Positions 34,248 through 61,669 of a DNA stretch of 64,000 nt are shown piece after piece (positions within the stretch are counted from its first letter, which is position 1; each line of letters starts with the position of its first letter). The stretch spans positions 1,025,252-1,089,251 of the forward strand of contig MFAS01000001.1 of assembly GCA_001774685.1 (NCBI GenBank), in the 5' to 3' direction. The notes under the pieces were generated by a model that worked only from the letters and a program-made list of their open reading frames with translations, ran no database searches and had not been told where the DNA came from. This DNA comes from Candidatus Collierbacteria bacterium RIFOXYD2_FULL_45_13. GTDB lineage: Bacteria > Patescibacteriota > Microgenomatia > UBA1400 > MFAQ01. A program made the position numbers and the translations under genes.

Positions 34248-36506
34248 CTAAACAGCAACCATCTCTTTTTCCGCTCGCTTCAGGAGTACCGCATTTGTCG
34301 CCACAATGATCGAAGACACACTCATTAGTAGCGCCGAGACTTCAGGTCGGAGCGAAATACCATAAGCCGGATACAAAACACCGGCAGCCACCGGAATCGC
34401 CAGCAGATTGTAGATCGAAGCCCAAAAAAGATTTTGTTTCATTTTTCGTACCGTCGCCTTAGAAAGTTTTATTGCCCGAAGAATATCTGCCGGATCAGAC
34501 TTCATCAGCACCACCCTGGCCGTTTCAATCGCCACGTCCGTCCCTGCTCCAATGGCGATACCAACATCCGACTGAGCCAAGGCCGGGGCATCATTCACCC
34601 CATCCCCCACCATGGCAACAAACTTGCCTTCATCTTGTAATTTTTTAACATAAGAAGCTTTCTCTCCGGGCAGTACCTCAGCAAAAATTCTCTCGATTCC
34701 TAGTTGCTTCCCAATCGCTTCCGCAGTTTTTTGATTGTCTCCGGTGATCATGGCCACTTCCAGTCCCATTTCTTTCATTCGAGTTACTGCCAGCTTGGCA
34801 TTTTCTTTTACCGGGTCAGACGCCGCCGCTACCCCCGCCAGCTTTTTATTCACCGCAAGTATCATTATCGTTTTTCCTTCAGACAAGAGCCTATCTATCT
34901 CACTCTTCAGGGTCGTTGTATCAACTTTATAATCTTTCATCAGTTTTTCGGTACCTACCAAGACATGCTTACCTGCCACCACCGCCTCCACTCCATGCCC
35001 CGCCAAGTTCTTAAATTTTTCCACCTTTGTCGAAATAGTTATTTTTCTTCTCTTCGCCTCTTCCAATATCGCCAAGCTCAACGGGTGAGATGACTTTGCT
35101 TCCACCGCTCCATCGAGACCAATAATTTCATTTTCAGTAAAGCCACTTGCCGCAATCACATCCGTAATTCTCGGCTTTCCTTCCGTTAGTGTTCCGGTCT
35201 TGTCTAGCACTACTGCTTGAATTTTTGAAACCTGTTCCAGGGTAGGCGCATCTTTGATCAAGATATTATGTTTTGCTCCCAACCCTGTCCCTACCGCTAC
35301 CGCTGTCGGTGTTGCCAGTCCGAGCGCATCCGGGCAAGCTATAACTATCGCCGAGATAGCAAAAGTCAGAGCCAGCATCAGTGGTTGACCAAGTACAAAG
35401 TACCAAACCAAGAATGTAATCAGACCTCCGCCTACCGCCACGATGACCAGATACTGAGCAAATCTATCTGCAATTTTTTGTCCTGGCGCTTTCGAGTTCT
35501 GAGCTGTCTCCACCATCTTGACGATCTGAGCGAGTGCAGTGTCTTCTCCTATTTTTGTCGCTTTGAATCGTACCGAGCCCGAAGTATTTATCGAACCGCC
35601 AATCACCTTATCACTCACATTTTTTACGACTGGTAGTGACTCCCCTGTTACGAGTGATTCGTCGATCGCTGTTTCTCCTTCGGTAATTTCTCCATCCACC
35701 GGCACTTTGTCCCCGGGTTTCAGAATCAGAATGTCGCCAAGTCTTACTTCAGATGTTGCTATCAGAGATTCTTTTCCGTTCTTCCACAGTCTGGCTTGAG
35801 GTGGCACCAGATCAAAAAGTGCTTGGAGGGCATCAGTCGTCCCTCTTCGGCTTTTCATCTCCATCCAGTGGCCAAACAAAACAAAGGTGGTGAGCATGGC
35901 TGCCGCTTCATAAAAAGACTCCTCACTCCCCAGCAGTGTGAGCACCACACTAAAAGCATAAGCCGCTGTTATACCTACAGCGATGAGCACCGCCATGTTT
36001 AATGCCTTGGCTTGTAATGCCTTGTAAGTAGAGTACAGAAAAATCCAGCCGGAATAAAAATAAACCGGTGTAGTTAAGAAGAACATTATCCAGCTCGCAG
36101 AAATCGGCATCGGCAGCTTCAATCCAAATATATTTGTTCCGAGAGGAGAATAAGCCACTATCGGTATGGTCAAAAGAAGGGACACAAAAAATTTATTTCG
36201 AATATCTTCTTCCATCATCTTCGCCATTTCCCGGCCGGCCAATCCGGTGTGTTCCATTCCCATCGCCATGGTCATACTCATTTTAAATTTTTCCCAAAAT
36301 GACATTTTTACACCGGGCTTCATCTCATGCTCCATCACCTGGTCACCATGACCCTTTTTATTGTGGTCCATTTTCATCTCCCCACCTGCAGGGCCTGGCC
36401 CTGCAGGCTTGTCATGTTTCATCACAAGCTCCATTCCGCACTTGGGGCACTTCCCTGGTTTGTCTAAGATAACCTCTGTGTGCATCGGACAGGTGTAGTT
36501 CATCAT
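34248..36506 (-). CDS. copA: Heavy-metal (Cu-type) P1B-ATPase with N-terminal CPxH/CxxC metal-binding (HMBD-like) domain, Met/His-rich stretch and atypical CPD transmembrane motif
   Basis: N-terminus YTCPMHTEV...KCPKCGMEL; MxM/His-rich segment; TGES (LVTGESLPV), DKTGTLT, GDGVNDAPAL. Ion-pathway motif IACPDALGLATP (CPD, verified on the DNA). The REP palindrome is inserted in frame at 36385-36407 and encodes PAGPGPAG. Confidence 0.85.
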   Translation of the reverse strand: MMNYTCPMHTEVILDKPGKCPKCGMELVMKHDKPAGPGPAGGEMKMDHNKKGHGDQVMEHEMKPGVKMSFWEKFKMSMTMAMGMEHTGLAGREMAKMMEEDIRNKFFVSLLLTIPIVAYSPLGTNIFGLKLPMPISASWIMFFLTTPVYFYSGWIFLYSTYKALQAKALNMAVLIAVGITAAYAFSVVLTLLGSEESFYEAAAMLTTFVLFGHWMEMKSRRGTTDALQALFDLVPPQARLWKNGKESLIATSEVRLGDILILKPGDKVPVDGEITEGETAIDESLVTGESLPVVKNVSDKVIGGSINTSGSVRFKATKIGEDTALAQIVKMVETAQNSKAPGQKIADRFAQYLVIVAVGGGLITFLVWYFVLGQPLMLALTFAISAIVIACPDALGLATPTAVAVGTGLGAKHNILIKDAPTLEQVSKIQAVVLDKTGTLTEGKPRITDVIAASGFTENEIIGLDGAVEAKSSHPLSLAILEEAKRRKITISTKVEKFKNLAGHGVEAVVAGKHVLVGTEKLMKDYKVDTTTLKSEIDRLLSEGKTIMILAVNKKLAGVAAASDPVKENAKLAVTRMKEMGLEVAMITGDNQKTAEAIGKQLGIERIFAEVLPGEKASYVKKLQDEGKFVAMVGDGVNDAPALAQSDVGIAIGAGTDVAIETARVVLMKSDPADILRAIKLSKATVRKMKQNLFWASIYNLLAIPVAAGVLYPAYGISLRPEVSALLMSVSSIIVATNAVLLKRAEKEMVAV
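36385..36407. repeat. REP-like 23-bp palindrome CCTGCAGGGCCTGGCCCTGCAGG, in frame inside copA (encodes PAGPGPAG)
   Basis: Exact copy of the palindrome found four times around the RAYT gene. Confidence 0.9.
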
Positions 36507-38056: not shown

Positions 38057-38121
38057 AAAAATTATTAACTAATAACAACCATAACTTTATCACCTTCAGT
38101 CTTTTGTCACAGGCCTGCAGT

Positions 38122-38520: not shown

Positions 38521-38528
38521 CTTTATAT

Positions 38529-39014
38529 TTATTTTTTATAATTAACCACACACGATGAATTTCGACTTCTTATAAGCACAAAAAGAGAAACCGATAGGAG
38601 AAATATAGACAAGTAAGACAGTTCCGCTCCCCGATAAGGTAAATAAACGAGAGAACCACCGAGTCCTAGTAATGACAATATTGGCAGTCCGCAAGCCACA
38701 CACCCACTCCCCACAATTCCCAATAAAGAATTTCCACCCACCACTACTTGCAGCTTATCAAATTTATTAAGGACCACGATCTTCTCAAAAAGCAAACTAA
38801 GATTCGCACCAGTTAAGACCGCGATCAAAAACAAAATGACCAGTCCAGATAAAGTCATTGATGTCCACATACCCTGAATTAAAGCAAACAGGATCTGAAC
38901 TTTGTAACCAATTCCATAGCTACCTATCAAAGTATCTCTGGCCAAGCTACTATTCATCAGCAGGGTGACAAACAGTAGATAAAGACTGGAAATGGTAACA
39001 ATTGAGGCAAACAC
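38529..39014 (-). CDS. Polytopic membrane protein with intramembrane CxxC (GSGCVACG), putative thiol-disulfide oxidoreductase partner of DsbA (DsbB/VKOR-like role)
   Basis: 161 aa with 4-5 TM, a CVAC motif in a helix, and a position immediately downstream of the DsbA-like gene with a 3-nt gap. Confidence 0.4.
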   Translation of the reverse strand: MFASIVTISSLYLLFVTLLMNSSLARDTLIGSYGIGYKVQILFALIQGMWTSMTLSGLVILFLIAVLTGANLSLLFEKIVVLNKFDKLQVVVGGNSLLGIVGSGCVACGLPILSLLGLGGSLVYLPYRGAELSYLSIFLLSVSLFVLIRSRNSSCVVNYKK

Positions 39015-39016
39015 GT

Positions 39017-39805
39017 TTACTTCAGCAATTCATCAATGATGGCCTTGAAAACGCTATACGGTTGAGCACCGACGATTTTAATACCATCAATCTCGCCATT
39101 ACTTGTGGACTTACCGATAAAGAAGGTCGGCGTACCTGAGGCTCCTACCTTTGCGGCATCAGCTAAATCTTTGTCCACTTCGGTCTTAAACTCACCGGAA
39201 TCCAAACACTGCTGAAATTTACTCACGTTTAGGCCCAGTTCTTTTGCGATGACTGGTAGTTGGTCAAGAGCCAAACCTGTCCCATTGGAGGTTGTTTTAG
39301 TAAAGATCTGATCGTGATATTTGAAGTACGCCGTGTCTCCGCCTTGCTTCCTGGCACACTCAGCCGCCTCAGCTTCCTTGGGGGCGTTTTGATGGAAACC
39401 AAGAGGCAAATCACGAAACACCATCTTAACTTTTCCGGTATCGATGTAGTCTTTTTTAATTTGTGGATAAGTATCGGTAAAATATTTTTTACAGAACGGG
39501 CATTCGTAGTCCGAAAATTCAATCAAGGTCACCTTAGCCTTTTTGTCTCCCAATATCGGGTCGTCATCCACAGATACTTTTACCGGTGCGCCGCTATCTT
39601 CCGGAGCTTGTTGAGCTGGCGGCGTATTCCTACTACCAGCTCCCAATACTGGTTGACCAACACCATTTTTAAGATACTTAACCTCGGTCCAAAGCGAACC
39701 CAGAAAAAAGGCCGCCACGATTAGAAGAACCACCAATGCTGGAGCATAACTGTTATGTTTTTGGTTGGGACTCGAAATCACTTTTTTTATTTTTTCGACT
39801 GACAT
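39017..39805 (-). CDS. DsbA-family thioredoxin-like thiol:disulfide oxidoreductase (membrane-anchored)
   Basis: N-terminal TM and the CPFC active site (FSDYECPFCKKYF). DsbA fold pattern with a C-terminal ...GTPTFFIG (cis-Pro loop). Confidence 0.8.
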   Translation of the reverse strand: MSVEKIKKVISSPNQKHNSYAPALVVLLIVAAFFLGSLWTEVKYLKNGVGQPVLGAGSRNTPPAQQAPEDSGAPVKVSVDDDPILGDKKAKVTLIEFSDYECPFCKKYFTDTYPQIKKDYIDTGKVKMVFRDLPLGFHQNAPKEAEAAECARKQGGDTAYFKYHDQIFTKTTSNGTGLALDQLPVIAKELGLNVSKFQQCLDSGEFKTEVDKDLADAAKVGASGTPTFFIGKSTSNGEIDGIKIVGAQPYSVFKAIIDELLK

Positions 39806-39898
39806 ATATTTTGGATGTAACTAATAAACAATTACCCTACTACAAGTGTAGTAAGGAAATCAACAATTGTCAACAGAGGGTGTTGAATAACTTCGTCT

Positions 39899-39922
39899 TG
39901 TCATCCTCGCGAATGCGGGGAT
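39899..39922 (+). repeat. 24-nt direct repeat GTCATCCTCGCGAATGCGGGGATC (hairpin-forming), copy 1. A second hairpin, ATTCCCGATCAGGTCGGGAAT, sits at 39937-39957
   Basis: Identical 24-mer recurs at 41409-41432. Both are followed by similar AT-rich ATA.AAATAAG sequence. Confidence 0.8.
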
Positions 39923-40008
39923 CTATATAAATAAGTTCCAGATGGATTCCCGATCAGGTCGGGAATGACAAATAAATGCATTATTCAACGGTCTCGTCAA
40001 CACCAATT

Positions 40009-40959
40009 TTAGATATGGGAAAATAAAGCCTCCACCACCTTTGATTCACAGATGTTTGTACAGTTTTTATCCTTTGAACACAAAAGAATGGCGTCTCCGC
40101 CACCATTGTGATATTCAAATGCAGTAACTTGGCTGAGAGATAACCCCACCAGAACTACCAGGGAGACAAGGCTGACGACAATGTTAGTTACCGGAGATCT
40201 CCTTCTCTCGACTTTTTGATTAACCAATTTTTTAACTCTATACTCCAAAGTATCCCATTCTCCCAAAGAAGGGGCAAAATTAAAGGTATTTTTGTGGTCA
40301 TGGCTCAGCAGTTTTTTTAGTACCGATATTAATGATTTAGAATTTTTCATCCCCCTTATAGCCGCCCTATCAGCCTCAACCTCATTCAAAATGCGATATC
40401 TTTTTGAAACATCCGAAATAACTGGAAAGAATGGAAACATCGTTTGCACGACGGAAGCAAAAAGGCAAGTAAAAGCATCTTTGTTTTCTAGATGGTATCT
40501 TTCGTGTCTCATTACCGCTTCTAATTCAATCTCAGAAAGAATATTAACCAAACCTGTAGACACATAAATCTTAGTATTAATAAAACCAAAACAAAAAGCA
40601 GAGGGGTGATCACTCAAATAAACAGATAGCTTGTTTTGAAGACCTAGTTTTTTAGCCATCCTTTTAATTACAGGGCTTCGAACAGTTGATGCAGACAGAT
40701 CTCTGCCAATCTTCGAGGTCTTTACCATAGTCGCCACTAACTTTATAGTTATATACATAAGCATAACCAGAAACACCATCAGACTGGCTTCTCCTAAATT
40801 ATTTGGCAGTCGTATTGGCAAACCATCAATCACCTGCTGGCAGTAGTAAATCGACTGGTGAAAAAATATGAGAACATACTTCCGGAAAAGGCTTCCCAAC
40901 ATCATGCTAGAGAAAGCAAAAAAACCAATCAGAACCATGAAGTATCTATTTACTTTCAT
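40009..40959 (-). CDS. BlaR1-like M56 family zinc metalloprotease lacking a PBP sensor domain. Short Cys-rich C-terminal tail
   Basis: HExxH (MRHERYHLEN) in the M56 context with 4 TM. 316 aa, against ~600 for BlaR1. C-terminus ...LLCSKDKNCTNICESK. Overlaps the BlaI-like gene by 14 nt. Confidence 0.7.
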   Translation of the reverse strand: MKVNRYFMVLIGFFAFSSMMLGSLFRKYVLIFFHQSIYYCQQVIDGLPIRLPNNLGEASLMVFLVMLMYITIKLVATMVKTSKIGRDLSASTVRSPVIKRMAKKLGLQNKLSVYLSDHPSAFCFGFINTKIYVSTGLVNILSEIELEAVMRHERYHLENKDAFTCLFASVVQTMFPFFPVISDVSKRYRILNEVEADRAAIRGMKNSKSLISVLKKLLSHDHKNTFNFAPSLGEWDTLEYRVKKLVNQKVERRRSPVTNIVVSLVSLVVLVGLSLSQVTAFEYHNGGGDAILLCSKDKNCTNICESKVVEALFSHI

Positions 40960-41323
40960 GGGTACCCAAAAGCCTTAATAACTCTTCTCGTTTCTCTTTT
41001 TGCAAACTTTCGACTGATTTGGCAAACGAAACTGTTGCTGACTCCCCGAACGAATCAAAAAAGTTATTAAGAAAAGATTTGGCAATTTTTTTACTATATT
41101 CTTCGCTGGTGGACTTTGGAGAGAACACAAAGGCCATACCTTCGTTTCTTTTATTAACCATACCTTTTTTGTAGAGTCGGTCTAGCAGTGTTGCCACTGT
41201 TGTATAAGCCATAGGTTTGGCTTTTCCAAATTTATTCACCACATCTCGCACATGACATTTTTTAAGATCCCAAACCACAACCATCACTTCTTGCTCCAAT
41301 GGACTTAACTTTGTTTGTATCAT
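40946..41323 (-). CDS. BlaI/MecI/CopY-family winged-helix transcriptional repressor
   Basis: LSPLEQEVMVVVWD...VRDVVNKF...YTTVATLLDRLYKKGMV matches the penicillinase-repressor family fold. Confidence 0.75.
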   Translation of the reverse strand: MIQTKLSPLEQEVMVVVWDLKKCHVRDVVNKFGKAKPMAYTTVATLLDRLYKKGMVNKRNEGMAFVFSPKSTSEEYSKKIAKSFLNNFFDSFGESATVSFAKSVESLQKEKREELLRLLGTHESK

Positions 41324-41408
41324 AAGATACTACTATTGTAGTACAATTTTAAAAAGGGTAATTTTCTACAAATATTTGTTCGATGTATTACAATAATTTA
41401 TCACCCAA

Positions 41409-41432
41409 GTCATCCTCGCGAATGCGGGGATC
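41409..41432 (+). repeat. 24-nt direct repeat GTCATCCTCGCGAATGCGGGGATC, copy 2 (divergent promoter region between blaI-1 and the DUF305 gene)
   Basis: Exact match to 39899-39922. Confidence 0.8.
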
Positions 41433-41455
41433 CATAGAAATTATAAATAATAAGT

Positions 41456-42043
41456 ATGACCAAACAACCTTTTCTTTATCTCGTACTCGGTCTTCTTGCC
41501 GGCGCTCTCATCACTTCGGCATTCTTATCACCCAACAGATCAGAAACTTCGTCTGACTCCAATATCGACCGCCACTTTATCGAGCAAATGATTCCCCATC
41601 ACGAAGATGCTATCACCATGGCAAACTCCGCCCTAAAAAAATCCAAGAAATCGGAAATAAAAACTTTGGCTCAGAACATCTTAAAAAGCCAGGGTGATGA
41701 AATTGCTCAAATGACTCAGTGGTACGGCGAGTGGTTCGGAAAAGAAGTTCCCCGTGGTGCAACTCAGATGGGTACTCATGGCATGATGGGCTCTGGAAGC
41801 AGTATGCATATGGGTTTACTGGGAAACGAAACAGACATTCTTTCTCTTGACACTGCTGTAGATTTCGATAAAGAATTTATTAGACAAATGATCCCCCATC
41901 ACCAGATGGCCGTCATGATGGCAACGATGCTGGAAAACAGCACGGATAAGTCCGAAACGAAACAACTGGCCAAAAACATCATCATCGCCCAAAATAAAGA
42001 AATCACCGACATGCGATCCTGGTACTCCACTTGGTACAAATAA
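41456..42043 (+). CDS. DUF305 family protein (secreted, two internal repeats)
   Basis: Two copies of the DUF305 motif: DRHFIEQMIPHHEDAITMA and DKEFIRQMIPHHQMAVMMA. N-terminal signal/TM. Confidence 0.8.
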   Translation: MTKQPFLYLVLGLLAGALITSAFLSPNRSETSSDSNIDRHFIEQMIPHHEDAITMANSALKKSKKSEIKTLAQNILKSQGDEIAQMTQWYGEWFGKEVPRGATQMGTHGMMGSGSSMHMGLLGNETDILSLDTAVDFDKEFIRQMIPHHQMAVMMATMLENSTDKSETKQLAKNIIIAQNKEITDMRSWYSTWYK

Positions 42044-42071
42044 TTACCTCTTATTATTAATAATAAATAAT

Positions 42072-42341
42072 ATGAAACACGATCCAATCGTCACTGGACA
42101 CGCCGCGGGAGCCACCACCGCTATTGTCTATACCGTCTGCCGTCTCTTGGTGGGATTATTTCCCGACTGGATGTATTCCATGGGCCAATCCTGGTTCCAC
42201 GGAATAGCTTTACAAAAACTAGAAAACACCAACCTGACACTGGGAAGCTTTTTCTCAGGTTTCATCTCTGTCACCATAAGCGCTTGGCTAGTCGGTTTCC
42301 TCTTCGCCAGCATGTACAACTCCTTCCTCACCAAGAAATAA
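42072..42341 (+). CDS. Small membrane protein, hypothetical
   Basis: 89 aa with two hydrophobic helices. The REP palindrome follows immediately at 42358-42380. Confidence 0.45.
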   Translation: MKHDPIVTGHAAGATTAIVYTVCRLLVGLFPDWMYSMGQSWFHGIALQKLENTNLTLGSFFSGFISVTISAWLVGFLFASMYNSFLTKK

Positions 42342-42357
42342 TCAATCCAATCACCCC

Positions 42358-42380
42358 CCTGCAGGGCCTGGCCCTGCAGG
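42358..42380. repeat. REP-like 23-bp palindrome, copy 1 (just 3' of the RAYT gene)
   Basis: Exact sequence CCTGCAGGGCCTGGCCCTGCAGG, a perfect palindrome around a central T. Confidence 0.9.
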
Positions 42381-42387
42381 TAAAAAA

Positions 42388-43071
42388 CTACTCATCTAAA
42401 TCAATCATCTCGTAATAAACTTTCTTAATATCTTCCATGTCTTGTGGATCTTCTACGAAGGATTGGTATGTATTCCTTCTATTTATTTTTGAAAAGTTTG
42501 AAAGTATCTCCTCAATCTTTACCCAATTTTGTTGAAACAATCCCAAGTAATTTCCATAACTAGAATATTTATACTCCACCAGACCTGCAGGGCCTGGCCC
42601 TGCAGGCAAAATGTCAATTGGATTCCGATGAATATATTTAGTTATATATACAAACTGATCTTCATTTTCAATCAAAACAGTCTTGTACCTGCTTTGAAAC
42701 AAACCACCTACTCGTTTGTATTTCTTATTAAAATACATCACGTACTTCAGCACTAAAGATTGCATGAATTCCGCGATACCACGATCGGTCGATTGTTTTA
42801 TCAAAAAATGGAAATGGTTGGGCATCAAGCAGTAGGCTAGCAAATCAATCTGATCATGGTAATTCTTAAGAACTTTCGATGGTGATACCTCCTGCAGGGC
42901 CTGGCCCTGCAGGATGGGCATCTCGAGATAAAATTTCATATATCCTAGGAAGACCTTGTAATCTTGCTCATCAAGAAAAATCGCCCGCTTCTCCACTCCT
43001 CGATTAAAGATATGGTAATACCCACCAGCCCCATATTCCTTTCGACTGTTTTTTTGTGGCATATACCACAA
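42388..43071 (-). CDS. IS200/IS605-family Y1 (HUH) transposase, likely REP-associated tyrosine transposase (RAYT), carrying two in-frame REP insertions
   Basis: YHIFNRGVEKRAIF...AYCLMPNHFHFLIK (HuH) ...GGLFQSRYK (catalytic Tyr). Flanked by two copies of the 23-bp palindrome and containing two more, which encode PAGPGPAG and LQGQALQE. Confidence 0.8.
   Translation of the reverse strand: MWYMPQKNSRKEYGAGGYYHIFNRGVEKRAIFLDEQDYKVFLGYMKFYLEMPILQGQALQEVSPSKVLKNYHDQIDLLAYCLMPNHFHFLIKQSTDRGIAEFMQSLVLKYVMYFNKKYKRVGGLFQSRYKTVLIENEDQFVYITKYIHRNPIDILPAGPGPAGLVEYKYSSYGNYLGLFQQNWVKIEEILSNFSKINRRNTYQSFVEDPQDMEDIKKVYYEMIDLDE
42584..42606. repeat. REP-like 23-bp palindrome, copy 2 (inside the RAYT CDS, in frame, encoding PAGPGPAG)
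   Basis: Exact copy. Confidence 0.9.
42891..42913. repeat. REP-like 23-bp palindrome, copy 3 (inside the RAYT CDS, in frame, encoding LQGQALQE)
   Basis: Exact copy. Confidence 0.9.
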
Positions 43072-43094
43072 TTATAAACACCAGTCACCTCCCC

Positions 43095-43117
43095 CCTGCA
43101 GGGCCTGGCCCTGCAGG
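43095..43117. repeat. REP-like 23-bp palindrome, copy 4 (between the RAYT start and the copA stop)
   Basis: Exact copy. Confidence 0.9.
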
Positions 43118-43125
43118 GTACCGGA

Positions 43126-46100
43126 TCATTTAGTTTGGTTTTGTACCAATTTAAAATAATTTTCCTTGAACTCTTTCGACACAAAGTGCATCTCATCCAG
43201 AACCGTAAAGTTCTTTTTGGCTACCCCGGCAACTAGCACATCACTGCCAAAGAGTCCGGTTATTCTATCTTGGTTGTTTGTAAACAGTTTCTCCTTCTTC
43301 ATCATGGCTGCTTCATTGTAACCAATATAAATCGGCAGGAATCTCTTACCTTCAATGTTGTAACTCAGCTTATACGGATCCACTATTCCCTTAAGCTGTT
43401 CAGGAGTATTCTTCCCGTCCAGAATGTAGAACAGTTTCAGCTCATCATAAGGAGTCTGGGCTACGACCAGGTCAGATCCGTCGACTTTAGCAAATGCCTC
43501 TTTACCCATCAAGTGATACTCGTCCAAAATTGTATTGGTAGGAGCTAGGATTCCCGCTATTCTTACCTTGGGCACTCCAAAGAAGTTATCGATAGTGTCA
43601 CCGACTTTTCCAAATAATTTTTCTTCTCTCATCATCTCGGCCTCCTTACTACCAATCACGATTCCCGGAACTTCACCCGACATATCCAAACCGCCCTCGG
43701 CTACTTTAATGTTTCCATTCACCGTACCGGCACTCAAGAACATCTTTGTCTGTCCTTCCTCAGTAATCAGCACCCTTGATTCTCCTGCAGTCAAAAGCTG
43801 AACTATCAAAGTATTTATTCCCGGCTGCGTCTGGGCATAAGTCTTCACCACACCCATATTTTCTTTTGTCGAGATCGTGGCAAACTGCCAGAAGATAAAC
43901 AGGAAGGCGGCGGTCATCACTACCGGAGCCAGTTTTGATAACAGGTTCCATCCCTTCGGATTAAATCTTTTTAACACTAGTGAGTTACTTACGACCGACA
44001 CGGACGACAGTGTCATGGCCAGTCCCGCCAGCTCCGGTTTGAGTATCAGACCAATTCCGGCAAAGATTCTGGCGGCCACCGGGATTCCCAGAACGTTGTA
44101 GAACAAAGCGAAGAACATGTTTTGTCTGATCTTATCGACAGTTTCTTCACTGAGTTTGATGGCTGTCAGGACTCCATTCAAATCATTGTTCATAATGATT
44201 ATTCCACCGGACTCCAGAGCAATGTCCGCGCCTGACGCCATGGCAATCCCCAGATCGGCCTGCACCAAAGCGGGTGAGTCATTGATTCCGTCCCCCACCA
44301 TCGCCACGGTTTTACCCAGCCCTTGAAGTTTTTTAACTTCCTCGGCCTTATTCTGTGGCAACACTTCTGCGAGCACGTTGGTAATACCTATCTGCTTGGC
44401 AATCGCATTCGCTGTCCTTCGGTTATCCCCCGTGATCATGTAAACTTCAATCCCTTTGTCTTGTAGTTTTTTGACTACTTCGGCAGTGGATTCTTTTACC
44501 TGATCTGCGACCGCGATAATTCCTAAGATCTGTTCTTTGTTGGCAATCAGCATGGCTGTCTTACCATCTTCTTCCAGTCTTTCCAGATCCATAAAGGAGA
44601 AGGCTTGGACTTTCTTCGACTCCATCAGTCTTCTGTTGCCGATATAGTAAGTCTGTCCGGCAATGACGGCTTCTACTCCGTGTCCCGGAATTGCTTGGAA
44701 GGATTCCACGGGAGTTTGCAAATCCACTGAAGAGATTCTTGTCTTGCAGTAATCCACAATGGCAGCTGCCAGTGGATGTTCCGACTTGGCTTCGACAGCA
44801 TTCAGCACCGTCAAGATTTCCTGTTCGGCTTTATTGGAATAATTAATAAAGTTAGTCACTTCCGGTTTCCCTTTTGTCAGAGTTCCCGTTTTATCAAACA
44901 CAATCGCGTCAATCTTGCAGGCCGTCTCCAGAGGCTCTCCGCCTTTGATTAATATTCCCAGCTCCGCACCCTTACCTGTCGCCACCATAATGGCTGTTGG
45001 TGTCGCAAGACCCAAAGCGCATGGGCAAGCGATCACAATCACCGACACAAAGGCCAGCAGGGCAAAGGTTAGTGGCATGCCGAGAAGAAAGTACCACACC
45101 GCAAAAGTCAGCAGAGCGATACCAATCACGACCGGGACAAAGATAGCTGAGATTTTGTCGGCAAATCCTTGTATCGGAGCTTTTGATCCCTGCGCATCTT
45201 CAATCAGTCTCACAATCTGAGAAAGAACCGTATCGGCACCGACTTTACTTACCTGGAACTCAAAACTACCTGTTTTATTAATTGTGGCGGTATACACTTT
45301 ACTTCCCATCTGTTTCTCCACCGGAATACTTTCCCCTGTTAGAGCCGACTCATCTACCGCACTATTGCCGGTCACAATCACGCCATCGACCGGTACTCTT
45401 TCGCCGGGCCGGACCAGAACAATATCACCCACTACTACCTTTTCTATCGGCAGATCCTCAGGCATTCCATTACGCATGACTCTCGCGGTTTTAGGAGCCA
45501 GCCCCATCAATTTCTCGATCGCCTGTGAGGTTCGCCCTTTAGCCTTGGCCTCTAGCCACTTTCCAAGTGCCACAAAGGTAATTAGTAATGCCGCTACTTC
45601 GAAGTACAAATTCCCGATCTTCATTCCGTTTAGTCCATAAATCGATCCGGTTTCCACTGTAAACTTCAAAAACTCAAGCAGACTATATACATAGGCTGTC
45701 AGTGTTCCGATAGCGATCAAACTATCCATGCTAAAGGTTTTCATTTTTAAAGCCGAAATTGCCCCACGAATAAAGTTATTACCTACCCAAAACTGAACGG
45801 GGGTCGCAAGCACCAAAGAGATAATTCCACTGATTGGCATAATTACTTTGGCAAAGGGAAGTCCTGCCACAAAGTCATAGATCATAAAACCCACCATCGG
45901 TAAACTTAAAATTAATCCGGTGAGAAACTTCCTTCCCCAATACCTAATCTCCAAAGATCTTTTTTCGTTTTCACTTACTCCGGCACTCTCTTCGGGCAGT
46001 GTTGCGGTATAGCCGGTTCTTTTTACCGCTTCTTTAAGCTCACTTGGACTAACCGCCAGAGATTGATATTTTATTCTGGCTTTACTGGTCGCAAAGTTAA

Positions 46101-46533
46101 CATTCGCTTCGGTAACTCCTTTAGTTTTCACTAGTGATCTTTCAATCAGTCCGGCGCAACTGGAACAATGCATCCCTGAGATATTTAGGTAAGCAATCTG
46201 ACTATCCGACTTTTCCTCTATCATTGTCTCGCGACTTGGCTGGACCATATCAACGATTTCACTATCTAGAGTTTTTGAGTTTTTGAGTTCTTGAGTTTTC
46301 TGTATTCCGTTCCCCGTGATCGACGTCGCCGTATACCCTGCTTCCTTAATGTTTTCAATCAGTTTATCTTCCGTAATTGCCTTCGGATTGTATTCCACGT
46401 CCACCTGTTTTGTCGCTAGTAATGCGTTAACAGACTTCACTCCTTTTAGTCCTTTAAGATTCAAAGAAATGAGTTTTGGGCAGGACTCGCAGTGCATGTC
46501 GGCAACTGCAAATGAAGTTTGTTTATAGTTCAT
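43126..46533 (-). CDS. copA: Cu+-exporting P1B-1 ATPase with two N-terminal HMA domains and an unusual ~330-aa C-terminal extension containing an internal duplication
   Basis: HMA1 [11 protein letters not shown] and HMA2 [11 protein letters not shown]; TGES (ALTGESIPV); CPC ([12 protein letters not shown]); DKTGTLT; [10 protein letters not shown]. After the last TM there is a ~330-aa tail with two similar ~50-aa segments (…[24 protein letters not shown]… and …[24 protein letters not shown]…). Confidence 0.85.
46263..46298. repeat. GAGTTTTT/AAAAACTC octamer tandem repeat (x4), in frame in the copA HMA1-HMA2 linker (encodes [12 protein letters not shown])
   Basis: The same tandem octamer recurs at 56764-56799 and 60468-60495. 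Confidence 0.7.
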
Positions 46534-46538
46534 ATTTT

Positions 46539-46757
46539 TTATTTTGTAACACTGGCTGCGTAACCGGTTTCCTCAATTGCGCTAATTATTAACTCAGGAG
46601 ACACTTTTTCGGTATGGCTGACAATAACCGTTTTGTCCTTCAAGGAAGCGTTAGAACTTACCACACCCGGTATCTCTTCCAAGGTAATATTGATTAATTT
46701 TGGACACGACTCGCAGTGCATGTCCGGAACCGAGAACTTGATTGTTTTTGTACTCAT
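46539..46757 (-). CDS. copZ: HMA-domain metallochaperone (CopZ-like)
   Basis: 72 aa with [11 protein letters not shown], the same variant motif as HMA1 of the adjacent ATPase. Confidence 0.8.
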
Positions 46758-46771
46758 ATTTTTTATTCATC

Positions 46772-46800
46772 GTCATTGCGAGGAACGCAGTGACGTGGCA
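46772..46800 (+). repeat. GTCATTGCGAGGAACGCAGTGACGTGGC, a short member of the GTCATTGCGAG family (between copZ and the HMA-DsbD_2 gene)
   Basis: Matches the first ~28 nt of the 14146 copy at most positions. Confidence 0.55.
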
Positions 46801-46826
46801 ATCTATATTGATAATTAATTGATAAT

Positions 46827-48362
46827 TTATTTATTTCCTCCACAAGATCCCGTACCACTACCTCCACAACCACACCCTTTCGCTCCGGAACCGACGGGCT
46901 CTGTGACTGTCCCCACCGAACCCTGACTATCCACTACCTCGATCGTCCCCGAAACCATACCCATCCAGCAGGTAAACTTGTAGACACCAACTTTTGCTGG
47001 TGTAAACTCTCTTGTTGAGACCTGTCCTGGAATCAAATCAATCTGTCCTTCAAACAGCTTAGAAATAATGGCATTGGTACATCCGCTGGTGCCGGTATCG
47101 GTAACTTCCATAATGGTTGGAACTCCAACTCTAATCTGAAAGCGGTTAGGTGAGTATCCTCTTGCCGATGCTTCCATTTTGATAACTTGCTTTCCCCCCA
47201 CCATCGGCACCAGATTTATTACTCCTGCTGTTGTGGTCCTTCCCAAGATTTGTCTTGTTCCAATTCCGGCAATCACATCTCCGACATTGGTAAGTCCAAG
47301 CACCGAGAGCTGGCTGTTAACATTAAAAAGTGAGAAAGCAAGCACCAAAATCCCCGCCAGAGTCGAAAAGTTCTTCGAAGAGTTTTTATCAGCCAACATC
47401 TTGGTACTCCCTAGTCCAATGGCCAAAAGACCAGGAACTGTCCCAAGTGCAAAGAGACCCATTATCAGAGCTCCTTGCACCGGTGATCCCGAGGCTAAGG
47501 CCAACGCCTGGGCCGTTACCGTAAATCCACAAGGTAAGAAGAATGTTAAAGCACCCATAAATAAAGGTGACAGTTTTCCTTGAAAATTATTTTCATCCGA
47601 GACACTTCTAGTAATTGATTTTGGTAATCTAAACTGGAACTTTTGCACTGCTTTTACCCCAAGCATCTGCAAACCAAGAACAATCATCACCACAGAAACC
47701 GCTATTACGAGCATCGCAGAAAAAGACGGAGACAAGCGGAAGAAGTTACCCACAAAACCAAGAATCGCTCCAAAGAAACCATATCCGGCCACACGCCCAA
47801 TGTTAAACAATATATGCGGTTCTGACTTTGTCGCTAGGGAATCGTTCTCACTATATTTAGACATCCACTGCTTAGACATCGATAACACCAAACTGCCTAC
47901 CAAAGCCGCACAGCTGGAAACCCCAGCTAGCAACCCAAAAAGGAAAAAGACCGGCAAAGCCGATTGAGAGTTTACGGAAACTAGTGAGGCAAACCCAGTC
48001 TTTTGGAGTATGTAGAATCCCATCAGAAATAAAGCCGCCACCATAAAAGGCACAAACCTATCATTAGGATTACCTTCATCTCTCACCTCACAAGAGATAT
48101 TTTTAGTTTTACTTTGTTTTTGAAAAGGCTCGGTTGAGAAGGCATAGCCATCCCCAGCGAAAAATCCATTCAAGAAATCAACCGATATTAGGTGATCTTT
48201 TTCCGTCTCAATACTCAGTGTTTCTTTATCCAAAGAAACATCAGCCATGATAACCCCCTCAGTTTTCTTTAGTCTCTTTTCTATGATCAGTTCACAAGAG
48301 GCACAGTGCAGACCTCTGATGTAGAAAGTAGAGACTGTCCGGTCTTCTTTGTTGCTTAACAT
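46827..48362 (-). CDS. Three-part fusion: N-terminal HMA domain + DsbD_2/TauE-like multi-TM domain (Cys in separate helices) + C-terminal Cys/Met-rich soluble domain, with a Gly/Cys-rich tail
   Basis: GLHCASCELI (HMA). Membrane domain with ...AGVSSCAALVG... and ...FFLPCGFTVTAQ.... C-terminal ...YKFTCWMGMVSGTIEVV and a GCGCGGSGTGSCGG tail. Confidence 0.65.
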   Translation of the reverse strand: MLSNKEDRTVSTFYIRGLHCASCELIIEKRLKKTEGVIMADVSLDKETLSIETEKDHLISVDFLNGFFAGDGYAFSTEPFQKQSKTKNISCEVRDEGNPNDRFVPFMVAALFLMGFYILQKTGFASLVSVNSQSALPVFFLFGLLAGVSSCAALVGSLVLSMSKQWMSKYSENDSLATKSEPHILFNIGRVAGYGFFGAILGFVGNFFRLSPSFSAMLVIAVSVVMIVLGLQMLGVKAVQKFQFRLPKSITRSVSDENNFQGKLSPLFMGALTFFLPCGFTVTAQALALASGSPVQGALIMGLFALGTVPGLLAIGLGSTKMLADKNSSKNFSTLAGILVLAFSLFNVNSQLSVLGLTNVGDVIAGIGTRQILGRTTTAGVINLVPMVGGKQVIKMEASARGYSPNRFQIRVGVPTIMEVTDTGTSGCTNAIISKLFEGQIDLIPGQVSTREFTPAKVGVYKFTCWMGMVSGTIEVVDSQGSVGTVTEPVGSGAKGCGCGGSGTGSCGGNK

Positions 48363-48406
48363 ACTACATAGTGTAGTTGGTTAAACATTCTCTGTCAAGA
48401 GGGTAT

Positions 48407-49324
48407 TCAGTGGAGCTCCAGCACCGAGGAAATAGCGGACAAACACAAGGTCAAATGAGGGCAACTGTAGAAGTTTACCTTAGTCACGAGGTAAGCAAAA
48501 ACCAACGCTCCTACCCCAGTCGAACAGGCCACGCCAAGCACCATCTTTTTATTGAGCCTCTTCCTTCCAACTAGCAGACCAATTCTCTCGCTCTGGCTAC
48601 TAAAGAAATTAATCCCGGCTAACATGGCAGTGTCTCCCCAGTTCAATCGTTTGTACAGAGCCGTAATCAGGGGCAGTCCTGTTCCCAGTCTTTCTTCGGC
48701 CTTTTTGTCGGCACACACTTCGACCAAGGTATAAAAGTAGCCAGCCAGCTTTGTCTTCCCCGGGAAACTGGGCAAAATCTTCTCAACCATTCCTACCACA
48801 GTAGTTCGCAACGGGTCTCTCGACTGGGCATGATTGAGTTCATGCAACACCATCGCTTTGAGTTCCTTAGAACCATGCATTTTGTGAAGGCTCTTAGATA
48901 TGTATATTTTTGGAGACCACAAGCCGGCCGTAAAGATCTCCCCACCAGCTGAATCGAAGAGAACTTTCTTCCCGGTTTGCGAACAGATCTTGAGTCCACC
49001 CACAAACATTCTTGTTTTTCTTACCATCTGCACCGTTTTTAAGGCAACATTCAAAGCTCGCCATATTAAAGCCAAGCTTAGTAGCCACAACCCGAGAGAT
49101 ATCCAGAGCTGAGATAAATTACCATAACTTTCGAGACTGTACCCATACTTTCTGGCGTCGAACAAATAAACTATCAACATCAGTGTCCCAGGTGAACTCT
49201 GAAAAAACACCCACAGTATCGAGGCCAAATAGATAATACCCAGAGCCAATATGGCCCAAAAGTACAGGTCCGATAATTTACTTAGTTTTCGATGATTCAT
49301 TCGATTTAGTACTATCCTCAACAT
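48407..49324 (-). CDS. BlaR1-like M56 zinc metalloprotease, second copy, sensor-less. C-terminal CPHLTLC
   Basis: HExxH (VLHELNHAQS) with 4 TM, 305 aa. Overlaps its BlaI-like partner by 47 nt. Confidence 0.7.
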   Translation of the reverse strand: MLRIVLNRMNHRKLSKLSDLYFWAILALGIIYLASILWVFFQSSPGTLMLIVYLFDARKYGYSLESYGNLSQLWISLGLWLLSLALIWRALNVALKTVQMVRKTRMFVGGLKICSQTGKKVLFDSAGGEIFTAGLWSPKIYISKSLHKMHGSKELKAMVLHELNHAQSRDPLRTTVVGMVEKILPSFPGKTKLAGYFYTLVEVCADKKAEERLGTGLPLITALYKRLNWGDTAMLAGINFFSSQSERIGLLVGRKRLNKKMVLGVACSTGVGALVFAYLVTKVNFYSCPHLTLCLSAISSVLELH

Positions 49325-49670
49325 ACTGCTTGAGTAGCTCCAGATCTCCTTTATTATTTTTCAACTCGTCTACAAACTGAGAGATCGCTAATCCCCCAAA
49401 ATCATTTACGAGGTTGCCATAGATCGCCGACAAGTTTTTCTTCACAAAAACCTCTTTTTCCAAACAAGGACAATACTCAAAGGCTTTTCCGCACATTTCC
49501 CTCTTTAGGATCTTCTTGTCAGCCATTCTTTTGAGCACCGTCATAATCGTAGTGTAGGCATGATCGCCTCCCAGCTTTCCCAAGACTTCCTGTGGTTTGA
49601 GTGGCTTTTCAGCCTCCCAGAGAATGTTCATCACCTGCTCCTCAAGCGGTCCAAATAATTTGCTTTTCAT
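49278..49670 (-). CDS. BlaI/CopY-family repressor with internal Cys cluster (CGKAFEYCPC)
   Basis: EEQVMNILWEAEKPLKPQEVL...YTTIMTVLKRMADKKIL winged-helix pattern of the BlaI family. The extra Cx6CxC is absent from classical BlaI. Confidence 0.7.
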   Translation of the reverse strand: MKSKLFGPLEEQVMNILWEAEKPLKPQEVLGKLGGDHAYTTIMTVLKRMADKKILKREMCGKAFEYCPCLEKEVFVKKNLSAIYGNLVNDFGGLAISQFVDELKNNKGDLELLKQYVEDSTKSNESSKTK

Positions 49671-49722
49671 ATACTACGTATTGTAGCATAGACTATTATA
49701 TCGTCGCCTCGAATCTACAATC

Positions 49723-49778
49723 TCCTGTAGGGCCAGGCCTTGAAGGATGAGTTTCCTATAAGGCCTGGCCCTAACGGA
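49723..49778. repeat. Degenerate, split REP-like element: CCTGTAGGGCCAGGCC-(22 nt)-GGCCTGGCCCTAACGG in the blaI-2 / DsbD_2 divergent promoter region
   Basis: Two half-sites related to the REP palindrome form a 16-bp inverted repeat around a 22-nt loop. Confidence 0.55.
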
Positions 49779-49807
49779 AGCAATCAAATAAAATATAATT
49801 TAACCAA

Positions 49808-50863
49808 ATGCAAAACACCAACTTACTCATCATCTTCCTCACCGGTCTCACCACTGGCGGTCTCACCTGCCTAGCCCTCCAAGGCGGACTACTGACCTCG
49901 GTTATGGCCAAAAGAGAGGAAGAGTTCCTCAACACTTCTTCCAAAAAAACCCTGCGAGAATCTTCCTCAAAGATAAACTCCGGTAACTTGGTACCGGTTA
50001 TCTCTTTTCTCTCCGGCAAACTTTTCATTCACACCCTCCTGGGAGCTCTACTTGGCTTGCTCGGCTCGGCTATCACCCTTTCTCCGATCACTCGCGGTTG
50101 GCTCGAAGTTTTTATCGGTATTTACCTTTTTGGTATTGCCGGTAATCTACTGCACCTACACCCTCTGTTCCGTTATTTTGTCATCACGCCTCCCAAGTTT
50201 CTGGCCAAACTAGCCAAAAACGAATCAAAAAGTAATTCCGTCTTTGCCCCTGCCCTTCTCGGTCTCATGACGGTTTTCCTCCCTTGTGCCACCACTCAGG
50301 CTATGGAAGTAATCGCCATCGGCACCGGAAATCCTCTTTATGGCGCCGCCATCATGTTTGCTTTTGTCCTCGGTACCTCTCCCACTTTCCTCATTTTTGG
50401 CTTCCTTCTCAATCAAGGCTCCACTTGGTTAAAAAAATATTTCCCTACTGTCGCGGCTACCGCTATGTTTGGCATGTCTATTTACAGTATCAACGCCGGC
50501 ATTGGTCTCATGGGCTCCGTCTATACCATTCAAAACTTTATCTCAGCGGCCAAGTCCGAACCGGTTCTGGCCAGCAACTCCGTTCTGGGCGACAAGGTCC
50601 AGACTACTACCATCACAGTAGCCAATTCCGGTTACACCCCCAGACAAATCACCCTCAAAAAAGGGGTTCTGACAAAACTAAAATTAATCACGAATAATGT
50701 CCAGTCGTGTTCACGCTCCTTTACCATTCCCAGTCTTAACATTCAAAAGCTGTTGCCCGTGACTGGTGAAACCACCATCGAATTCACCCCCAAAACCACT
50801 GGCCCTCTCGCCTTCTCCTGCTCCATGGGCATGTACACCGGCCGTTTCAATATTATTAATTAA
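49808..50863 (+). CDS. DsbD_2/TauE-like multi-TM protein with C-terminal Cys/Met-rich soluble domain (paralog of the 46827..48362 core)
   Basis: ...GGLTCLALQGG... and ...VFLPCATTQAMEV... in TM helices. C-terminal ...LAFSCSMGMYTGRFNII parallels FTCWMGMVSG of the paralog. Confidence 0.6.
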   Translation: MQNTNLLIIFLTGLTTGGLTCLALQGGLLTSVMAKREEEFLNTSSKKTLRESSSKINSGNLVPVISFLSGKLFIHTLLGALLGLLGSAITLSPITRGWLEVFIGIYLFGIAGNLLHLHPLFRYFVITPPKFLAKLAKNESKSNSVFAPALLGLMTVFLPCATTQAMEVIAIGTGNPLYGAAIMFAFVLGTSPTFLIFGFLLNQGSTWLKKYFPTVAATAMFGMSIYSINAGIGLMGSVYTIQNFISAAKSEPVLASNSVLGDKVQTTTITVANSGYTPRQITLKKGVLTKLKLITNNVQSCSRSFTIPSLNIQKLLPVTGETTIEFTPKTTGPLAFSCSMGMYTGRFNIIN

Positions 50864-60868: not shown

Positions 60869-61579
60869 CATGTATTCCCCCTATTACTAAGGGCATGGAC
60901 TATATCACCTTCCGATTCCTCGGAAGACCGACGTATTATGGAATAAATTCCATCTACTGATTTAGCAAATCAATAAGTCTCTACGGGGTTACAGATCTTG
61001 AATTTCTTCCAAATGGTGCTTTACCATTTGTGAGTCTACGGTTCTTTTTCTTGAATAATTTAGATTTCGGAATTCATCAATCAACTCTGCTACAGATATA
61101 AAATCCTGCTTTGTTTTGATTCCCTCCATCTTATCCAAGATCAATAGCATTAGTTGTGCTTGTTTCACTTTTAATATTAAAAACTTCATGACTTTAGAGA
61201 GCAATGCCCTGATCGATTTCTTATCAGAAACTATTAGCTCCACCATGCCGTCTTTTCGATATCTCAAATGACCCAAGTTTAATTTTTCATATATTTCCGG
61301 TAATCCTTTTTCTCCATTGTCTTTTTGATAAAAGACAACCGAGGGTGATATCTGAAAGTCATATTTATAAGTTGAGTTTTGCTTCAACTGGACATAAATA
61401 CTTCCATCAGCATCCAGAAAACCAGCGATATATGACCAAAAAATGCTTTTAACCATAGACAAAAAGATTTGAACTTCCCTCGGTATTATCCTAGCACACG
61501 ACAGATTGATTGTGTATTAGGACTTCACCGATATAAGTCAGTTTTGCAAATTGGATTACTCCAATGGGCCGCCAATTTG
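60869..61579 (-). mobile_element. Probable group I intron in 23S rRNA at the I-CreI-type site (between ...GGGTTCAAACCGTC and GTAAGACAGGTTGG..., E. coli ~2593), encoding a LAGLIDADG homing endonuclease
   Basis: Conserved 23S sequence is interrupted by ~710 nt. The interruption contains the ORF 60989..61462. Boundaries are approximate, within a few nt. Confidence 0.7.
60989..61462 (-). CDS. LAGLIDADG-family homing endonuclease (intron-encoded)
   Basis: N-terminal SYIAGFLDADGSIYVQLKQN is a single LAGLIDADG motif. 157 aa, and the ORF lies inside the rRNA insertion. Confidence 0.75.
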   Translation of the reverse strand: MSMVKSIFWSYIAGFLDADGSIYVQLKQNSTYKYDFQISPSVVFYQKDNGEKGLPEIYEKLNLGHLRYRKDGMVELIVSDKKSIRALLSKVMKFLILKVKQAQLMLLILDKMEGIKTKQDFISVAELIDEFRNLNYSRKRTVDSQMVKHHLEEIQDL

Positions 61580-61623
61580 ACGGTTTGAACCCAGCTCACG
61601 TAGCGCTTTAATGGGCGAACAGA

Positions 61624-61658
<35 letters not shown>

Positions 61659-61669
61659 CTGAGCCGACC

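Follow-up and report, generated by a model that had tools for sequence, protein, structure and literature searches.

In a 64,000-nucleotide stretch of DNA from the tiny groundwater bacterium Candidatus Collierbacteria bacterium RIFOXYD2_FULL_45_13 (GenBank assembly GCA_001774685.1, contig MFAS01000001.1, positions 1,025,252 to 1,089,251; this whole stretch is referred to as the window), an uninterrupted minus-strand open reading frame (ORF) encodes a complete CopA-type (P1B-1) Cu+ exporter, which is continued in the same polypeptide by a ninth predicted transmembrane (TM) helix, TM9, and by a tail with a tandem-duplicated domain that is predicted to face the outside of the cell (Table 1). The TM helix and the domain together form a unit that is a protein family of its own and a dedicated partner of Cu+ pumps, because it is fused to CopA in bacteria of the Candidate Phyla Radiation (CPR) and encoded adjacent to CopA in archaea. 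This architecture and the partnership with the Cu+ pump can be stated with high confidence. Taken as a whole, the observations are on balance best explained by a dedicated outward-facing accessory module, which would accept or relay exported copper or dock an acceptor for it. The sequences are public and are annotated as CopA or as hypothetical proteins only, neither this domain nor a P1B pump with nine helices and an ectodomain turned up in a full-text search of the literature, and the exit-side module is previously undescribed.

The pump part of the protein is unremarkable in its motifs. Pfam assigns two HMA domains (residues 6-69 with C15xxC18 and residues 116-177 with C123xxC126), E1-E2_ATPase (E 2.9e-60) and Hydrolase of the HAD type (E 6.5e-41), and the catalytic motifs TGES399, DKTGT547 and GDGIND747 are present. 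The combination of CPC in M4, YN in M5 and MxxSS in M6 is the signature that defines the P1B-1 subgroup, and the transmembrane Cu+ site is formed here by CPC503 (M4), YN812 (M5) and MTLSS840 (M6), i.e. MxxSS840. TIGR01511 (ATPase-IB1_Cu) matches with 614.1 bits at a cutoff of 397 and its alignment reaches residue 855, while NF007952, the equivalog model of E. coli-type CopA, scores 641, below its cutoff of 1316, with an alignment that reaches residue 860. Judged from these models and motifs, the protein is classed as a member of the P1B-1 subfamily and not as an E. coli CopA equivalog. The sequence-only reading of this DNA had listed two HMA domains and the TGES, CPC, DKTGT and GDGxND motifs, all of which are found in the ORF; its statement that the pump is complete by about residue 800 does not hold, since YN812 and MTLSS840 lie beyond that point and the CopA models align to residues 855-860. 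Likewise, the long C-terminal extension that it described is present, but comprises ~275 residues (861-1135; 43129-43953) and not ~330. The identical protein is deposited at NCBI from Ca. Collierbacteria under four accessions (KKU32352.1, OGD73634.1, OGD76676.1 and OGD78012.1) and on 16 contigs, where it is named "copper-translocating P-type ATPase" only. A Kyte-Doolittle scan of the protein gives the eight canonical hydrophobic segments and a ninth at residues 864-887, which the sequence-only reading had missed. The published description of P1B pumps comprises 6-8 TM helices, a cytoplasmic C-terminus and soluble terminal metal-binding domains (PMC13460109), whereas nine helices are predicted for this pump, so that its topology falls outside that description. 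The ninth helix is an addition to the P1B topology, and no feature of the pump is lost.

The DNA that joins pump and tail contains no stop codon, no spacer and no usable in-frame start ahead of the hydrophobic stretch. M6 is followed by a loop of nine residues with three positive charges and then by TM9, which appears in the AlphaFold model as a long helix leading into a low-confidence linker, and which in alignments falls on the anchor at the N-terminus of the stand-alone homologues described below. The junction is conserved in all 54 fused orthologues that were compared: the loop between M6 and TM9 is rich in Lys and Arg in 54/54, with the form [KR]x[FY][KR]Px[KR][KR]N, and a hydrophobic segment scoring 1.6-2.7 occupies the position of TM9, again in 54/54. 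P0085, a full-length orthologue of 1125 amino acids (aa) with 49% identity, keeps the junction as well (LKNFHPKKINILSKLAPILMT). An internal start that would give a separate tail protein was considered and rejected, since the sole in-frame GTG/ATG (V872/M873) falls within TM9 and no spacer precedes it. At the junction (43955-43975; GTG TTA AAA AGA TTT AAT; GTTAAAAAGATTTAA), the DNA carries a run of five A residues (43970-43974) with a TAA in the adjacent frame. A slip by one base in this run would produce a tail-less CopA ending in LVLKKI directly before the stop; the run is not a canonical slippery heptamer.

The tail itself matches no Pfam or NCBIfam family, with only the ends of the CopA models and noise being returned (DctQ, E 0.029; DEAD, E 0.15), which supports the earlier suggestion of a novel domain. 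No hemerythrin match was found in it by Pfam, no Pfam scan of the tail or of its family gave a match to DUF1490 (PacL), and the cysteine positions of the ORF include none in the tail. The protein ends with the tail domain, after which there is no hydrophobic segment. Two related segments of ~50 aa had been noted in the tail and taken as a tandem duplication. They correspond to residues 957-1012 (43498-43665) and 1069-1121 (43171-43329) and are 45% identical (BLASTP E 3e-13), far above chance; the duplication is therefore real, but its modules are ~95 aa each. When the two halves of an 86-member family alignment are compared with hhalign, they match over ~90 columns (probability 99.9%, E 3e-31). 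Each module consists of a β-hairpin with a conserved K-x-F, an "EG" turn and a strand-helix-strand-strand unit, and both modules of the window protein carry the pattern G-x-x-E-A-x-M-M-x-x-E-x-L-F ... G-D ... F-G ... G-[IV]-L-x-x-T-x-T-x-x-D-x-x-H. The conserved positions are E964, A965, M967, M968, E971, G978-D979, F985-G986, T999, D1004 and H1007 in module 1, and E1074, A1075, M1077, M1078, E1081, D1113 and H1116 in module 2. A recent duplication at the DNA level was rejected, because the identity between the modules is so low at the protein level and both modules are found in archaeal and bacterial members.

When 1.84 billion cluster representatives were searched exhaustively with a profile (threshold E<=1e-3), 193 members of the family formed by the TM helix and the tail were found, i.e. 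~190 representatives at 50% identity, and wherever members are named in their sources the name is "hypothetical protein". Most of them are stand-alone proteins of ~250-275 aa with a single TM helix only, some have one module (e.g. P0105 and P0113), and at least 11 long members represent fusions to a P-type ATPase, whole or as fragments. The first search with the tail had given at least four stand-alone proteins of 257-265 aa, all with both modules and without any Pfam domain; three of these four have an N-terminal hydrophobic anchor, and the fourth, P0002, seems to be truncated at its N-terminus. Against a profile of five sequences, the window tail scores E 6.5e-102, the tail itself being among the five. 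Membership was defined by a TM anchor (N-terminal or fused), by one or two modules with the pattern, and by a CopA that is fused or adjacent; the window tail has each of these and belongs to the family of CopA-linked TM and tandem-module ectodomain proteins.

The linkage to CopA was followed in 80 related loci, 76 from a scan of one genome per species with a five-sequence alignment and four context loci, all sorted by tblastn with the pump core and the tail of the window. An in-frame CopA::tail fusion is present in 54/80, of which 41 continue beyond the pump for 256-281 aa with two modules and 13 for 137-172 aa with one. In 20/80 the tail homologue has its own gene, directly next to CopA and in the same orientation, ten times upstream and ten times downstream, and in the remaining 6/80 the contig ends too near the match to judge. 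A link to CopA is thus seen in 74/74 informative loci. Stand-alone homologues of ~260 aa, for which a search had been proposed earlier, do exist and lie beside CopA wherever flanking DNA is available; the proposal of a gene fusion with a downstream soluble protein is borne out as far as the fusion is concerned, but not for the word "soluble", as the homologues are membrane-anchored. A hidden stop codon or frameshift between ATPase and tail, raised as a concern at the same time, can be set aside in view of the identical ORF on 16 contigs under four accessions and the 54 in-frame loci.

Across the 54 species-level genomes with the fusion, tail identity is 30-58%. The fusions are bacterial and mostly from Patescibacteria/CPR, including Collier-, Peri-/Peregrini-, Saccharibacteria, SR1/Absconditabacteria, Morani-, Davies- and Levybacteria, as well as Woese-, Doudna-, Magasanik-, Falkow- and Gottesmanbacteria; one of the fused loci (L067) comes from a chromosome-level Falkowbacteria record. 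Among the separate-gene loci from named genomes, 16/18 are archaeal and the other two are labelled "delta proteobacterium". The archaeal hosts are Woesearchaeota, Altiarchaeota, Methanoregulaceae, Methanosarcinales, Methanoculleus palmolei DSM 4273 and Methanosphaerula subterraneus, the last two being cultured methanogens with complete genomes (L058, CP137641, and L053, NZ_CP170508, respectively). In M. palmolei (L058, 3659-6636) the start of the partner gene overlaps the 3' end of the CopA gene by 28 nt (CopA 3659-5836, partner 5809-6636, cupredoxin gene 6644-7084), and the gene order is helix-turn-helix regulator, HMA-membrane protein, CopA, partner and Cupredoxin_1-like protein. On a long archaeal-type contig (L001), the partner is followed by CopZ, CopA and three cupredoxin/HMA genes.

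Two observations concern the lineages in which the fusion occurs. P0085 shows Trp at positions of conserved Gly (TWES, DKTWT and WDWIND), as expected for an organism with UGA=Gly (code 25) whose sequence was translated with UGA=Trp, and five fused loci (L007, L009, L017, L060 and L079) have TGA as their sole in-frame stop, 16-26 times each, and stay open only under a code in which UGA is a sense codon. The fusion therefore occurs also in lineages of the SR1/Absconditabacteria/Gracilibacteria type. Many other fused loci, among them L015, L019, L021, L022, L024, L026, L029, L032 and L072, carry NCBI labels outside Patescibacteria, such as uncultured Gammaproteobacteria, Bdellovibrionales, Pseudomonadales, Actinomycetota, Atribacterota or Cyclobacteriaceae. 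A wrong label or contamination of the bins could explain this, as could an occurrence of the fusion outside Patescibacteria.

By established topology, the C-terminus of CopA after M6 is cytoplasmic. With one more helix, the 248-residue tail therefore comes to lie outside the cell, a placement in which we have considerable, though not complete, confidence. It is supported by the distribution of charges around the loop and the anchor: among 65 stand-alone homologues, Lys and Arg are more frequent before the anchor than after it in 40, equally frequent in 16 and less frequent in nine. Further support comes from features of two family members that fit a location at the surface. The archaeal stand-alone protein P0038 (370 aa) ends in a low-complexity tail rich in N-Q-T sequons, which may be read as an N-glycosylation-type surface feature. 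P0133 (638 aa) has a fragment of CopA followed by TM9 and the tail, beyond which it extends for another ~250 aa at the C-terminus; this extension contains HEHPE and MHTHPM as His-rich motifs and matches CopC faintly (E 0.023). Finally, the sole recurrent similarity of the domain is to the periplasmic domain of MacB/LolC/FtsX-type transporters, which also argues for the outside. The description of the extension as "cytoplasmic" in the sequence-only reading is thus not supported, given a predicted TM helix after a K/R-rich loop, anchored homologues and likeness to a periplasmic domain. We strongly infer that the domain is tethered on the outer face beside M5/M6.

Two AlphaFold models were obtained for the fold of the tail, one including TM9 from five sequences (mean predicted local distance difference test, pLDDT, 77; predicted template modelling score, pTM, 0.69) and one of the soluble part from a 20-sequence alignment (pLDDT 84.9, pTM 0.79, with the first 15 residues below 50). 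Both show two strand-helix-strand-strand units with β-hairpins between them. In Foldseek searches of the PDB with both models, periplasmic domains of LolE, LolC, YbbP and MacB account for nearly all of the top 15 matches, the best being 5udf_B (E 4.9e-3, probability 0.99). A permissive Pfam scan of 63 family members gave MacB_PCD (PF12704) as the sole recurrent family, with 13/63 matched (best E 7e-6) and six for the next family. In two examples the match covers one module each, module 1 in one and module 2 in the other, at profile positions ~119-198 of 207, with 14.5 and 17.1 bits and thus under the gathering cutoff of 27 bits; the best of the 13 may be near the cutoff. A sequence search of the PDB with the 63-sequence family profile returned nothing but a chance match to a capsid protein (E 0.34). 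On the basis of these models and profile matches, the domain appears remotely MacB-PCD-like, a likeness that is weak but consistent, and it is not filed as a member of PF12704.

How such a module could serve a Cu+ pump is suggested by its position and by its conserved residues. TM9 would pack against M5/M6 and hold the ectodomain above the outlet of the pump, where the ectodomain could serve exported Cu+ as an acceptor or relay tethered at the exit side. In a direct route, the Met-Met...Asp-x-x-His set of each module would take Cu+; alternatively, the ectodomain would dock a co-encoded, outward-facing protein of the cupredoxin type. Either way, cells that lack both an outer membrane and CusF/CusCBA would gain a directional release of Cu+. 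The candidate ligands are M968, D1004 and H1007 in module 1 and M1078, D1113 and H1116 in module 2, and the set is intact in both modules in 67/86 family members and in at least one module in 80/86. A role of the ectodomain in copper relay or docking is put forward tentatively, falling somewhat short of what we would call probable. More speculative still is a wider reading, which we regard as possible: the module would be the first outside-facing accessory of a P1B ATPase, a unit derived from MacB/FtsX-type mechanotransmission and recruited by the Cu+ pumps of CPR, DPANN and methanogens, which captures Cu+ through Met and His or couples the pump cycle to its release, and passes it on to cupredoxins at the surface. 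If true, it would provide cells lacking a periplasm with a "CusF-like" exit chaperone that is built into the pump.

Several points weigh against an outward-facing copper acceptor and bear on what else the module might be. Its topology is predicted, from hydrophobicity and charges. The tail is free of cysteine and matches none of the HMA, CopC, CusF, cupredoxin and YtkA families in Pfam, NCBIfam and PDB profile searches; the Foldseek TM-scores are only 0.21-0.33, with high root-mean-square deviations and no match reaching E 1e-3; and for the tail of the window protein itself, MacB_PCD is not matched even at E 10. The diderm labels among the fused loci (Gammaproteobacteria and Bdellovibrionales), if correct, weaken the rationale that relies on the lack of an outer membrane. 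As to the candidate ligands, the first Met of the pair is often replaced by L, I, V or A, the His is sometimes Tyr, and module 1 of one subfamily has L-[IV] in place of Met-Met and A or S in place of His, with module 2 keeping the set. A structural role of the Met and His residues is therefore possible. Such tolerance of other hydrophobic residues and of Tyr is what would be expected of a structural partner resembling a β-subunit, in which TM9 and the ectodomain stabilize, fold or position the pump, with no contact to copper and no docking; the β-subunit of the Na,K-ATPase, CDC50, KdpC and mycobacterial PacL are precedents for such a partner. The strict fusion or adjacency to CopA and the overlapping, probably translationally coupled genes in Methanoculleus would fit this too, and single-pass accessory subunits are common among P-type ATPases (PMC10654040). 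However, most CopA pumps need no such subunit, and E, M, D and H are nearly invariant in one module or both of 80 of the 86 members, which goes beyond the usual demands of a fold; a purely structural partner is the main alternative, but one that we consider unlikely.

The sole likeness of the domain in structure and in sequence, to the ectodomains of type VII ABC (ATP-binding cassette) transporters, raises the further idea of a mechanotransmission module as in MacB, LolCDE and FtsEX. Here the helix motions of the E1-E2 cycle would drive work of the ectodomain outside, such as pushing copper or a partner off or gating the outlet, and the mere nine residues that join TM9 to M6 would suit a mechanical coupling. 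By contrast, the low-confidence, probably flexible linker of ~15-25 residues between TM9 and the domain would transfer force poorly, the archaeal partner is a separate polypeptide, and there is no second helix back into the membrane as in MacB, all of which make this explanation improbable. A cytoplasmic regulatory or metal-binding C-terminal domain, as the sequence-only reading had it and of the kind seen in the C-terminal HMA of Archaeoglobus fulgidus CopA or the hemerythrin-like domain of P1B-5 pumps, would be in keeping with the cytoplasmic location of the known C-terminal additions to P1B pumps (PMC13460109), and that residues 864-887 span the membrane is a prediction. Yet a membrane-length hydrophobic segment follows a K/R-rich loop in 54/54 fusions, stand-alone homologues are anchored at their N-termini, the likeness is to a periplasmic domain, the tail is devoid of Cys and of HMA or hemerythrin matches, and an archaeal member ends in a sequon-rich tail, so that a cytoplasmic domain is very improbable. 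No more credence is given to a surface function unrelated to copper, e.g. in the cell envelope or in host attachment, that hitch-hikes on copA: episymbiosis and a wealth of novel surface proteins are frequent among CPR and DPANN organisms and no metal-binding family is detected in the tail, but the linkage to CopA holds in 74/74 informative loci across two domains of life, with free-living methanogens included, which is difficult to account for unless the two are functionally tied. The least probable explanation is an artefact, in which two separate genes, copA and the one downstream, read as one owing to a missed stop or frameshift. An indel of one base in the A5 run at the junction would indeed end CopA at the TAA; against this stand the identical ORF on 16 contigs in four NCBI records of metagenome-assembled genomes, the 54 fused genomes and the lack of a start or spacer before TM9, and the conserved junction in 54/54 fusions excludes an assembly artefact for practical purposes.

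The gene lies in a copper/redox island of the window (37673-50863), the members of which are listed in Table 1. Directly upstream of the pump gene stands a CopZ-like HMA chaperone, homologues of which were found by tblastn in 29/80 related loci, and beyond it a protein in which HMA is combined with a DsbD_2 membrane domain and Cupredoxin_1, which is a candidate outside-facing partner. Homologues of the second, shorter DsbD_2-Cupredoxin_1 protein were found by the same method in 56/80 loci; the DsbD_2-cupredoxin architecture itself is poorly understood. The island also contains a 2-TM DUF5676 protein and a DUF302-like ORF, assigned by eye.

Table 1. Features of the CopA locus and of the remainder of the window, in window positions
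Feature	Position	Strand	Description and basis
Whole ORF	43126..46533	-	1135 aa + stop; CopA pump, TM9 and ectodomain in that order; ORF list
P1B-1 Cu+-ATPase module	43954..46533	-	residues 1-860, 8 TM helices; Pfam, NCBIfam, motifs
Junction loop (KRFNPKGWN)	43945..43971	-	K855-N863, between M6 and TM9, predicted cytoplasmic; DNA reading
Predicted TM9	43873..43944	-	L864-I887, 24 residues; Kyte-Doolittle 19-residue peak 1.89
Predicted extracytoplasmic tail	43129..43872	-	S888-K1135, 248 aa; linker ~888-905, then folded α/β domain; AlphaFold
Module 1	43492..43767	-	residues 923-1014; hhalign, conservation table
Module 2	43165..43455	-	residues 1027-1123; BLASTP, hhalign, conservation table
CopZ-like HMA chaperone	46539..46757	-	72 aa, MHCESC motif; directly upstream of pump; ORF list
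HMA - DsbD_2 membrane domain - Cupredoxin_1 protein	46827..48362	-	511 aa; upstream of pump; Pfam
Second DsbD_2-Cupredoxin_1 protein	49808-50863		351 aa; Pfam
BlaI/BlaR1-like regulator-sensor pair	40009-41323		possibly CopY-type
BlaI/BlaR1-like regulator-sensor pair	48407-49670		possibly CopY-type
DUF305 protein	41456-42043
YtkA/FixH-like protein	38122-38520
DsbA-like protein	39017-39805
IS200-like Y1 transposase ORF	42388..43071	-	Pfam Y1_Tnp
Palindrome CCTGCAGGGCCTGGCCCTGCAGG, copy	36385-36407
Palindrome, copy	42358-42380
Palindrome, copy	42584-42606
Palindrome, copy	42891-42913
Palindrome, copy	43095-43117
5S rRNA	60270-60386
Bacterial 23S rRNA	61529-64000	-	cut by window end

Elsewhere in the window, a palindrome of 23 bp (CCTGCAGGGCCTGGCCCTGCAGG) occurs in five perfect copies, none being expected by chance. 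Four of these lie around or within an IS200-like transposase ORF, one just beyond each end and two in the coding sequence, where they encode "PAGPGPAG" and "LQGQALQ". The copy just beyond the end nearer to copA stands 8 nt past the stop codon of the pump gene, and the fifth is located within the ORF 34248..36506. The arrangement of palindrome and Y1 transposase looks like a REP/RAYT-type system (repetitive extragenic palindromes with their associated tyrosine transposase). At the end of the window, the spacer between the 23S and 5S rRNA genes is unusually long (~1.1 kb) and holds an ORF of 157 aa (60989..61462, minus strand); no tRNA genes were found across the 64 kb.

The way in which Cu+ leaves a P1B pump, and its recipient outside the membrane, are established for E. 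coli CopA and CusF only. The locus suggests an exit-side module, conserved though unannotated, that the fusion physically marks as a partner of the pump. The module extends the stated topology of P1B pumps from 6-8 to nine predicted helices, and P1B pumps thereby join those subfamilies of P-type ATPases for which an exoplasmic accessory component may exist. As the partner is a separate gene in two cultured methanogens with complete genomes, the idea is open to biochemical and structural work.

Of the known systems, the hand-off from CopA to CusF resembles the function proposed here. E. coli CopA passes Cu+ to periplasmic CusF instead of releasing it freely, and the CusF site is made up of one His and two Met (PMC7558416), to which the Met-Met pair and the His kept by the modules can be likened. 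CusF differs in being a soluble protein with an oligonucleotide/oligosaccharide-binding fold that occurs in diderm bacteria and feeds CusCBA, whereas the candidate acceptor described here is tethered, has another fold and binds copper only putatively. The layout is similar in MacB, LolC, LolE, FtsX and YbbP of the type VII ABC transporters, where a single TM helix is likewise followed by an extracytoplasmic α/β domain with strand-helix-strand units, and the TM helix with its ectodomain corresponds to the N-terminal part of a MacB/FtsX-type permease. The window protein differs from these in that it lacks a four-helix permease of the FtsX type, an ABC ATPase and any return to the membrane, and is joined to a P-type ATPase; moreover, its tail is a tandem duplication, and the modules of those family members that match PF12704 align with its C-terminal portion only. 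The C-terminal HMA of A. fulgidus CopA and the hemerythrin-like domain of P1B-5 pumps are cytoplasmic, directly follow M6 and belong to known metal-binding families. They share with the tail the presence of an extra domain past the last canonical helix, but they have no further TM helix. PacL (DUF1490), which accompanies CtpC, CtpG and CtpV of Mycobacterium tuberculosis, is a small single-pass protein encoded beside its P1B pump and dedicated to it (PMC13460109), and the archaeal stand-alone genes follow this genetic logic. Its domain, however, is cytoplasmic, rich in Glu and Ala and disordered, binds the cytosolic metal-binding domain of the pump and is related to the tail neither in sequence nor in fold, and a fusion of PacL to a pump is not described in the same review. 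Among P-type ATPases at large, the β-subunit of the Na,K-ATPase, CDC50 of the P4 pumps and KdpC of the P1A pumps combine, like the unit described here, a membrane anchor with an outside-facing domain bound to the pump (PMC10654040). These subunits belong to other pump subfamilies and have unrelated folds, while for P1B pumps no exoplasmic subunit is described in the two reviews (PMC10654040; PMC13460109).

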